A stretch of DNA of 64,000 nucleotides from Escherichia coli. GTDB taxonomy: Bacteria > Pseudomonadota > Gammaproteobacteria > Enterobacterales > Enterobacteriaceae. A program made the position numbers. Below are positions 39,601 through 42,600 of this stretch, piece by piece. Where the stretch lies: the NCBI RefSeq assembly GCF_003334815.1, contig NZ_QOWO01000014.1. One strand, given 5' to 3'. Each line of letters starts with the position of its first letter. The stretch's first letter is position 1.

Positions 39601-42600
39601 TGCTGCACCGAGCATCATGCTACTAACCACCCATTCCTGCAAACGACTGGTCAGCACAAAGTGATCGGTAATGAACGGCAACGCTCCGGCGATTACGCCG
39701 ATATCAAGACCAAATAACAATCCTGCGACCGCAGCAGCTACCGAAACAAACATATTCATACGCCGCGTATCCCGCAAAGAACGTGGCGTTAAAGCAGATT
39801 CCGTATTGATAGTAACCATTTTTTCCTGCCAGCAGAGAGTAAGACATAGTGAAAAAATACGTGAACAACTCACGCAGGTGTCAGGTCGGAAACAGCATAA
39901 ATATGGATTAAATTGCTGCGACATGTCGTTATGTGATGGATATTCCAATTTTCAAATTAAGTTGAATTATTGAGATTATTATTAACCACCTAATTTTACA
40001 GCAGATAAAATTCATAAAGTTCATTAATTGATAATTAATATGGATTATTTCATAACCATGATATGGATTATGATGATCTACAGGTATAAAAAACCCTGCC
40101 ATGCGGCAGGGTCATAAAAGTAAGAAGAATGAATTAACGCGCCAGCCAACCGCCATCCACGGCAATGGTATAACCATTCACATAATCTGAAGCGCTGGAG
40201 GCAAGGAACACTATCGGCCCCATCAGGTCACTCGGCAGTCCCCAACGACCAGCTGGAATGCGGTCGAGAATTTCCGCGCTACGTTGTTCATCTGCCCGTA
40301 GTTGTTGAGTATTGTTGGTCGCCATGTAACCCGGGGCTATCGCATTAACATTAATGTTGTGTTTAGCCCATTCGTTCGCCATCAATCGCGTCACACCCAT
40401 CACGCCGCTTTTTGATGCGGTATAAGAAGGCACACGGATCCCGCCCTGGAAGGAGAGCATTGACGCGATATTGATAATCTTGCCGCCATTGCCTTGCGCG
40501 ATAAAGTGTTTCGCCGCTGCCTGAGACATGAAGAATACGCTCTTGATATTCAGGTTCATGACATCGTCCCAGTCCTTTTCGCTGAACTCGAGAGCATCTT
40601 CGCGGCGAATCAATCCGGCGTTATTCACCAGGATATCAATATGACCAAACTCCGCTACCGCGCGATCCAGCAGTGCTGGAATACCATCAATCTTTCGCAG
40701 ATCGGCGGTCAGGCTTAAAAAACGACGCCCCAGCGCTGTGACCTGCTCGATGGTTTCAGTCGGTTCAACGATGTTAATGCCAACAATGTCACAGCCCGCT
40801 TGCGCCAGCCCCAACGCCATCCCCTGACCCAGTCCAGTATCACAACCAGTGACGACCGCAACTTTACCTTCGAGAGAAAATGCACTTAAAATCATAACAA
40901 TACCTTATTCGTTTATGCCCACAACTAGCGCAAATCTTTAACGGCCACATGGTCCATATCATCAAAGACCTGGTTTTCACCGACCATGCCCCAGATAAAG
41001 GTATAAGCTTTGGTTCCGACACCGGAATGGATCGACCAGCTCGGGGAGATCACCGCCTGCTCGTTATGCATCACAATATGACGCGTTTCTTGCGGCTGCC
41101 CCATCATGTGGAAAACGCAGGCGTCATCATCCATATTGAAATAGAAATAAACTTCCATCCGGCGCTCGTGGGTGTGACACGGCATGGTGTTCCACAAGTT
41201 ACCCGGAGCCAGCTCCGTCAGCCCCATACTCAATTGGCAGGTTTCCAGTACATCCGGGACAAAATATTTGTTAATCGTGCGACGGTTACTGGTGAGGTTA
41301 TCGCCTAACGTGACTGGAGATACTTCGTCCGGTGTGACTTTTTTGGTGGGATACGTCGTATGCGCGGGTGCGCAATTGTAATAAAACTTCGCCGGAGTGC
41401 CGGTATCAATACTGGCAAAGACAACTTCTTTTGCACCTTTACCAACATACAGGGCGTCGCGGTGACCGATTTCATAGCATTGGCCATCGACAGTAATCGT
41501 ACCGGCACCGCCAATATTGATAACACCTAACTCGCGACGTTCAAGGAAATAGCTTACGCCGAGTTGTTTACCAACTTCCCCGCCAACGGAAACCGTTTTA
41601 GTTATCGGCATAATGCCGCCAACAATAATTCGGTCAATGTGGCTGTAAACCATGGTGTACTCATCGGCGACAAATACCTTTTCAACCAAAAATTCATTGC
41701 GCAGCCCTTGGGTATCCAGCGTTTTTGCGTGCGCACTGTGGATGCTCTGTCTTACGTCCACATCAACCTCCGATAATCAGTGAAGCGTGAAAATAGAAAA
41801 CGATAGTGAAACACTGTTTCGTTTTCTCTATAAAGGGATGATATGCCCATGGGCTAGGGTTTTCAATTAAAAATAAAACAATGTTTCATTTTTAAGTTAA
41901 GGATTAAAAAAAGTGCAGTGTCGATCACGAATATGTCATGAGAATGGAAAAATGAGGGAGCCCAGAAAATGTATGTCGACTTGCCAGCCATCATTATTCA
42001 ACAGATTAATGACGGCAGATATTTATCGGTAAGGAGGAAATGCAGAGCTATTCGTCACGTTCAATGGTCAATGCCACACCCTGGCCCCCGCCGATACAAA
42101 GCGTTGCCAGTCCTTTGCGGGCATTACGTTTCACCATTTCATGAACCAGAGAAACCAGGATTCGGCAACCGGAAGCGCCTATCGGGTGACCGAGTGCGAT
42201 CGCGCCACCATTGACATTGACCCGACGCTCATCCCACTCAAGCATCTTGCCAACCGAAAGCGCCTGTGCAGCAAACGCTTCATTAGCCTCGATAAGATCG
42301 ACTTCAGCCAACTGCCAGCCTACACGCTCCAGGCAACGGCGGGTCGCATACACCGGCGCAATTCCCATCAATGCCGGATCTACACCAACGCTGGCAAATG
42401 CGCGAATGCGGGCCAGCACGGGTAAATTCAACGCTCGTGCTTTGGCTTCGCTCATCATCATTACCGCAGCTGCGCCATCGTTTATGGATGATGCATTACC
42501 CGCTGTCACAGAACCGAGACTATCAAATGAAGGATTTAAACGGGCTAAGCCTTCTGCGCTGGCGTCAGTGCGTGGCTGTTCATCGGTATCAACAACCAAC

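Follow-up and report, generated by a model that had tools for sequence, protein, structure and literature searches.

DNA looping as a means of gene regulation has its founding example in AraC and the araBAD promoter; among natural AraC loops, only O2–I1 has, to our knowledge, been characterised. The promoter of the arabinose transporter gene araE, as far as we know, has been described with an adjacent AraC site and a CRP site only. The locus examined here raises the question of whether araE carries further AraC half-sites upstream of these elements. The original prediction was that a short motif, repeated upstream of araE, resembles the end of an AraC half-site, and that its two distal copies may be either additional AraC sites or coincidental AT-rich repeats. 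We analysed a 64,000-nucleotide stretch of Escherichia coli DNA (the window), which covers the lysA-lysR-ygeA-araE-kduD-kduI region, together with orthologous araE loci from across the Enterobacterales.

The repeated motif and the araE promoter

The interval considered spans the entire araE-kduD intergenic region. An 801-bp query across it had a match in 5,424 of 5,426 complete E. coli genomes, with araE and kduD as the annotated genes. From kduD towards araE, the elements referred to below are:

40134: end of kduD
40083..40113, minus strand: intrinsic terminator of kduD, from a terminator scan (hairpin 40113->40092 plus T tract)
40062..40078, minus strand: distal box d1, 17-bp window GATCATCATAATCCATA; core TCCATAT at 40067->40061, 160 bp upstream of the I1-like B-box
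40039..40055, minus strand: distal box d2, 17-bp window TTATGAAATAATCCATA; core TCCAT(A) at 40044->40039, 23 bp downstream of d1 and 137 bp upstream of the I1-like B-box
39951..40038, minus strand: AT-rich spacer between the distal pair and the CRP site, unconserved in sequence and constrained in length
39929..39950, minus strand: CRP site, a consensus match read from the sequence; core TGGAA-TATCCA-TCACA at 39947->39932
39902..39918, minus strand: I1-like AraC half-site CAGCAATTTAATCCATA with A-box and B-box, holding the first motif copy (compare araI1, TAGCATTTTTATCCATA)
39881..39897, minus strand: I2-like AraC half-site TGCTGTTTCCGACCTGA, 21 bp downstream of the I1-like site (compare araI2, TAGCGGATCCTACCTGA)
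39884->39879, minus strand: presumed -35 hexamer, the CTGACA end of the I2-like half-site; CCTGAC is conserved
39854..39859, minus strand: presumed -10 hexamer TATTTT, in a conserved GTAnTTTCA block (TAnTTT in other genera)
39819, minus strand: ATG of araE

Sequence reading and a pattern search placed exact copies of ATATGGATTA on the plus strand at 39901-39910, 40038-40047 and 40061-40070; read in the direction of araE, each is TAATCCATAT. In the distal two the identity continues to give the 11-mer ATATGGATTAT (40038-40048 and 40061-40071), with starts 23 bp apart, and the positions and spacing first put forward are thus exact. We counted 6 exact copies of the 10-mer in the window; shuffles that preserve dinucleotides predict 0.12, and in 100 of them the count never rose to 6. 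Over both strands of the 64 kb window there are 18 occurrences of the core TCCATAT; at this window-wide frequency, three same-strand occurrences within the 314-bp intergenic region have a Poisson probability of ~8e-6. An origin of the distal pair by tandem duplication was rejected because the two 23-bp units share the 11-mer only.

To score AraC half-sites, we used a position-weight matrix (PWM) made from seven E. coli AraC half-sites, none of them from araE. The I1-like site scored 12.16 bits, third in the window, and its YAGC-N7-TCCATAT pattern is conserved in 49 distinct sequences (YAGC in 48-49 of 49). In araE orientation the promoter reads CAGCAATTTAATCCATA-TTTA-TGCTGTTTCCGACCTGACA, and the araI1-araI2 region of pBAD reads TAGCATTTTTATCCATA-AGAT-TAGCGGATCCTACCTGACG. 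The layout is the same, from which it follows that the first motif copy is the B-box of the I1-like half-site; it is part of that half-site and not an additional one. The suspected likeness to the end of an AraC half-site is therefore borne out at the proximal copy, which forms the TCCATA end of the I1-like site. By analogy with pBAD, araE transcription would start near 39848. Directly upstream of the I1-like site is the CRP-type site (TGGAA-N6-TCACA), which holds a fourth invariant TCCAT (TCCATCACA, 39940->39932), 33 bp upstream of the I1-like B-box; 42 distinct sequences share the pattern AAA.T..AA..TCCATCACA.

The hairpin and T-run of the kduD terminator are kept in most genera in the alignment, and this terminator is the upstream limit of the araE control region. 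In a promoter scan of both strands, the distal boxes and their surroundings were free of sigma-70-like promoters, and araE had no divergent promoter; there was a single weak plus-strand match at 39982-40011, and matches were fewer than in shuffled sequence. When 39700-40250 was scanned against Rfam with a permissive threshold, the only two matches were at chance level (E 0.4-0.7), indicating no structured RNA.

Conservation of the distal pair

We collected 80 araE loci, one per species, from the Enterobacterales, of which 60 had a recognisable proximal site and enough upstream DNA. A pair of TCCAT(A) boxes, in the orientation of the I1-like B-box, was present in 58 of these 60 core Enterobacteriaceae loci. 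The two boxes are 161 and 138 bp from the I1-like B-box in 36 species, 160 and 137 bp in seven, E. coli and Salmonella among these, and 162 and 139 bp in two. In the Klebsiella/Raoultella/Kluyvera clade they are at 152 and 129 bp (10 species) or 151 and 128 bp (one), and in Phytobacter at 150 and 127 bp. One Raoultella metagenome-assembled genome (MAG) has them at 162 and 129 bp, a pair spacing of 33 bp, i.e. +10 bp. In the more distant genera Franconibacter, Cedecea, Buttiauxella and Mangrovibacter there is one TCCATA only, at 150-154 bp. In Erwinia, Mixta, Rosenbergiella and Rahnella the proximal site is kept and no distal box was found.

The conserved sequence is short. TCCATAT of d1 is invariant in 56 distinct orthologous sequences, and its flanks carry almost no information in the logo. 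Over 53-56 distinct sequences the logos read ..aaAT.a..ATT[AG]TCCATAT for d1 and ..GAAAAATCCATA[TC] for d2. Within the shared 10-mer only [AG]TCCATA[TC] is conserved, the TAA prefix being specific to E. coli. A MAFFT alignment gave two isolated islands of identity amid unalignable DNA. In an alignment-free count, TCCATA(T) was the most widely shared k-mer of the distal region (20 of 22 genus-level representatives), and the T-run of the upstream terminator was nearly as widespread. Ten genus-level representatives, three of them unnamed MAG/UBA lineages and the other seven from named genera, were then stacked without gaps. Mean pairwise identity was 1.00 in d1 and 0.97 in d2, compared with 0.34 between the boxes, 0.44 upstream of them and 0.43 in the spacer. 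The CRP, I1-like and I2-like sites gave 0.83, 0.80 and 0.62, so no other element of the araE control region is as conserved as the distal boxes. That the orthologous loci might be recent horizontal copies of one sequence is excluded by the 34-44% identity of the flanks. The boxes are non-random and very strongly conserved, with fixed orientation and spacing and a constrained distance to the promoter.

We also considered whether the pair is linked to the 3' end or terminator of kduD, which is the upstream neighbour in most species. Between species the kduD-araE distance ranges over 311-671 bp. Salmonella, Klebsiella indica and Superficieibacter have insertions between the kduD terminator and the pair, one E. 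coli strain has an IS1 between d1 and that terminator, and Phytobacter keeps the pair without kduD. Since the distance to araE stays fixed despite insertions and where kduD is absent, the pair belongs to araE, and a link to kduD was rejected.

The spacer is 87% AT in E. coli, with a median of 73% across species, compared with 47% for the loci as a whole. It is 85-87 bp long, except in the Klebsiella/Raoultella/Kluyvera clade and Phytobacter, where it is 75-77 bp. It contains an IHF-like core that is only semi-conserved. The distance from d2 to the I1-like B-box falls at 137-139 or 127-129 bp, with no values between, and the modes of 138 and 129 bp differ by about one helical turn. Such a pattern is what a helical-phase constraint would produce, whether from looping or from cooperation on one face of the helix. 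The argument is suggestive only, because the modal difference is 9 bp rather than 10.5 and about three independent indel events underlie it.

A candidate AraC loop at araE and its alternatives

Do the distal boxes look like AraC half-sites? The I1 contact region spans 17 bp (PMC2241862), and we compared the corresponding windows of d1 and d2 with it. Both have TCCATA, the B-box, at positions 12-17, and it is unchanged among 53-56 distinct orthologous sequences; TCCATAT, which both contain, is the stretch of the contact region that carries the most information. At positions 1-4, where the A-box TAGC would stand, d1 has GATC (2/4) and d2 has TTAT (1/4), and no YAGC is conserved in this register across species. 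Each distal box alone would thus be a weak site; the accepted half-site araO2 likewise departs from the A-box (GAAA, 1/4). With the PWM, d1 scored 7.66 and d2 7.33 bits, values reached by 68 and 92 of 127,968 window positions respectively (the top 0.05-0.07%), and the low scores that would have told against AraC did not occur. When known half-sites were scored by leave-one-out, O1L gave 7.97, araO2 -0.06, I2 -2.90 and O1R -13.2 bits, which puts d1 and d2 above O2, I2 and O1R and near O1L. With only seven training sites the PWM is coarse, and conservation is the stronger argument. Taken together, the scores and the conservation support the distal pair as possible additional AraC sites, with AraC as their predicted ligand, whereas the suggestion of coincidental AT-rich repeats does not survive the presence of the pair in 58 of 60 loci.

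The arrangement of the boxes bears on how AraC might use them. Both lie on the same strand as the I1-like site and more than 100 bp upstream of it, as expected of a looping operator of the araO2 type. They are direct repeats, as in an adjacent AraC dimer operator, but their period is 23 bp (57 of 58 species) or 33 bp (one) rather than 21 bp. Apo-AraC binds O2 and I1, arabinose shifts it to I1 and I2, and without arabinose AraC prefers well-separated half-sites (PMC2241862). [quoted passage not shown]

When arabinose is absent, an AraC dimer would place one of its DNA-binding domains on the strong I1-like half-site (39918-39902) and the second on either d2 or d1; the intervening loop of ~140-160 bp would include the AT-rich spacer and the CRP site. 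The loop would keep AraC off the I2-like half-site whilst leaving it parked at the promoter, and with AraC held off that half-site, basal araE transcription would be low. On addition of arabinose, the dimer would shift to the I1-like and I2-like half-sites, the latter overlapping the -35 hexamer, and together with CRP would activate araE. This would be the same 'light switch' as described for pBAD. Either box may close a loop of its own, or a single dimer may occupy both. AraC is present at the araE upstream region in vivo without arabinose by ChIP-qPCR, at a resolution too low to single out the distal boxes, and this signal is consistent with a loop-stabilised apo complex (PMC3738151). Several points go against the loop model: each box is weak without an A-box, there are two distal boxes here versus one at PBAD, their spacing is 23 bp versus the canonical 21 bp, helical phase is kept only approximately, and Erwinia, Mixta, Rosenbergiella and Rahnella have the proximal site without a distal box.

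The 23-bp spacing is the most rigidly conserved distance at the locus, the single exception in 58 species being +10 bp, which suggests that one protein complex reads both boxes. The pair could then be one adjacent direct-repeat AraC dimer site, similar to araO1 and making no loop to I1, which might act as a local AraC reservoir, block read-through from kduID or assist activation from upstream. AraC can cope with half-sites in other arrangements, direct repeats with 11 extra bp among them (PMC2241862), and the pair sits 12-45 bp downstream of the kduD terminator. However, the known adjacent AraC pairs (I1-I2, O1L-O1R and upstream araFGH) are spaced by 21 and not 23 bp, the distance to the kduD terminator varies, and a reservoir or roadblock requires neither a fixed distance to the araE promoter nor spacer classes quantised at ~10 bp. 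We consider such a dimer site unlikely. The departure from the AraC standard of 21 bp can also be read as a sign that AraC is not the ligand at all, and that the boxes are the target of another regulator or a nucleoid protein, their likeness to the B-box being coincidental. Only 6-7 bp of each box are conserved, and the A-box, the source of much of the specificity of AraC, is missing. Yet the conserved heptamer is the AraC B-box plus T, as in araO2 and in the I1-like site of araE itself, and it stands in the same orientation upstream of an AraC-dependent promoter; a different protein is, in our judgement, distinctly unlikely. Among named candidates, compared by eye with consensus sequences, the DnaA box (TTATCCACA) requires C where the distal boxes have an invariant T, and Fur, a second CRP site, IHF, Nac and OmpR-type repeats do not fit the invariant positions.

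That the repeats are a chance product of AT-rich DNA, or a functionless relic of a duplication, would suit the composition of the E. coli spacer, the confinement of the TAA prefix of the 10-mers to E. coli and the three further copies of the 10-mer elsewhere in the window, which have no obvious function. Against this, the boxes are invariant in ~20 genera amid neighbouring bases saturated with substitutions, the 23-bp units have nothing but the 11-mer in common, and the clustering has the low Poisson probability given above. Chance is scarcely credible as an explanation.

Returning to the loop between the distal boxes and the I1-like site, we searched the accessible literature for earlier signs of it. 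We found no description there of upstream AraC boxes at araE, and a full-text search with the site sequences themselves gave no match, although the boxes may have been described elsewhere. The accessible papers describe araE only as activated by AraC and CRP, and one published araE reporter includes the whole intergenic region without comment on the boxes. Nor did this literature yield data on an araC-dependent repression of araE without arabinose that is relieved by deletion of distal sites. We know of no report of araC-dependent repression of araE.

Significance and comparison with known systems

The araE promoter may use textbook looping of the araBAD kind. If so, the loop would keep a transporter gene repressed and pre-loaded; the basal level of the permease would be affected, and therefore the AraE-dependent all-or-none induction of arabinose systems. 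The loop would be a second natural AraC loop, shorter and double-sited, and as such a testbed for models of AraC flexibility. Reporter or expression constructs of P_araE truncated below about -200 would lose the distal boxes. What appears to be new is a candidate O2-like auxiliary AraC operator at a second ara promoter. A more far-reaching version, which we put forward tentatively, is that araE has a conserved, previously undescribed two-box operator at which AraC loops ~140-160 bp of AT-rich DNA, with the apex maybe bent at the IHF-like site; that the light-switch loop is ancestral at this second ara promoter in the Enterobacteriaceae and not peculiar to pBAD; and that the paired boxes at 23 bp represent a geometry, of alternative loops or a stretched dimer, that is not seen at araBAD.

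Weak auxiliary sites that are helically phased and cooperate with a primary site are familiar from the loops of lac (O2/O3), gal (OE/OI) and deo. As these involve different proteins and symmetric operators, the analogy is mechanistic only. Closer to hand, the upstream AraC site of araFGH contains CAGCAGATTAATCCATA, nearly the I1-like half-site of araE, and lies far upstream of its promoter; in contrast to the araE boxes, it is a complete operator of two half-sites with A-boxes and 21-bp spacing, inverted relative to the gene. It is not known to have a clear looping role.

The araE pair also shares features with araO1, where two direct-repeat boxes lie upstream of a CRP site and GTCCACA makes a good B-box in the upstream one. 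At 32 bp from the I1 B-box, O1R overlaps the CRP site, and the TCCAT within the araE CRP site is 33 bp from the I1-like B-box. The O1 half-sites, however, are 21 bp apart, adjoin the CRP site and serve the divergent araC promoter, whereas the araE pair is spaced by 23 bp, lies ~85 bp upstream of the CRP site and has no divergent promoter to serve.

For araO2, we used as a control the araC-araB intergenic regions of Klebsiella, Enterobacter, Cronobacter, Buttiauxella and Mangrovibacter, retrieved through AraC orthologues. In six genera, GAAACCAWTTGTCCATAT is conserved, the distance from O2 to I1 is fixed at 211-212 bp and the spacer is unconserved. O2 differs from the araE boxes in being a single site, 211-212 bp from I1 and within the araC leader, where araE has two boxes 23 bp apart, and in being conserved over all 17 bp (GAAACCAWTTGTCCATA) rather than over ~7-8 bp only. 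Looping and repression are proven for O2 and are a prediction at araE. The likenesses are in the site itself and in its placement. In O2 (ATTGTCCATAT), as in the d1 consensus ATT[AG]TCCATAT, A/T-rich sequence leads into a perfect TCCATA B-box and a T comes after it; araO2 (GAAACCAATTGTCCATAT) is without a TAGC A-box, as are d1 and d2. Both araO2 and the araE boxes have the orientation of I1 and lie well upstream of it, and in both cases a conserved box at a fixed distance, across an unconserved spacer, is kept from genus to genus.

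Insertions around the distal pair

The spacing of d1 and d2, the two conserved distal TCCAT(A) boxes upstream of araE, varied once among 58 species: in a Raoultella MAG (L019) a 10-bp insertion places the boxes 33 bp apart rather than the usual 23 bp. In E. coli 13C1065T (L092), IS1 has inserted between d1 and the kduD terminator, at window position 40075-40084. Despite this 777-bp insert (target duplication included), the d1/d2 pair is still joined to the araE promoter.

Motif matches elsewhere and the promoter hairpin

Outside the araE-kduD region there are three more exact copies of ATATGGATTA, giving six in the window against 0.12 expected:

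15290-15299, minus strand: copy in presumably coding DNA
36627-36636, plus strand: intergenic copy between lysA and lysR, 21 bp ahead of the lysR start
45673-45682, minus strand: copy in apparently coding DNA, in yqeH

Salmonella carries ATATGGGATA in place of the copy upstream of lysR. These three extra copies have no evident function. Two further features were recorded:

35873-35889, plus strand: AraC-PWM match TAGCCTGTAAATCCTGA, apparently inside the lysA coding region
39858-39876, minus strand: terminator-like hairpin and T-run, TGCGTGAGTTGTTCACGTA TTTTTT, in the araE promoter, flanked by the hexamers presumed to be its -35 and -10

At 15.4 bits, the lysA match has the top AraC-PWM score of the window and exceeds the real araE I1-like site (the proximal AraC half-site). 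The hairpin in the araE promoter is probably fortuitous, because its stem sequence is not kept in other genera.

An IHF-like element in the spacer

The AT-rich spacer contains the following element, at columns ~92-105 of the stacked araE upstream sequences:

39983-39995, minus strand: IHF-like element, AATTAGGTGGTTA

In the main clade, AAAT(C/T)A-N4-(A)TTAA is semi-conserved near the mid-point of the spacer, close to halfway between d1 and the I1-like site; in the stacked sequences it is missing from the Klebsiella clade. Compared with the IHF core WATCAR-N4-TTR, it is exact in Citrobacter, Kosakonia and Leclercia, and has one mismatch in E. coli. A bend at this position would favour a short loop.

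The TCCAT of the CRP site and the araBAD arrangement

A fourth invariant TCCAT lies within the araE CRP site (39929-39950):

39932-39940, minus strand: TCCAT, TCCATCACA

It occupies the 6-bp centre of the site, which is usually free, with the B-box (TCCATA end) of the I1-like site 33 bp downstream, and is kept in 58/58 pair-bearing araE loci (42 distinct sequences). This TCCAT may be an embedded AraC half-site.

For comparison, we used the araC-araB intergenic regions of six genera (L087-L091 and L082). Here the O2-to-I1 distance is constant at 211-212 bp. The O1R/CRP overlap, ATTTGC..G.GTCACA, is conserved, as is O1L (GGCAGAAAWGTCCACAT); the ~130 bp separating O2 from O1 are unconserved. In araBAD the CRP site is overlapped by O1R, a weak AraC half-site, 32 bp from I1, a distance nearly the same as the 33 bp of the TCCAT at araE.
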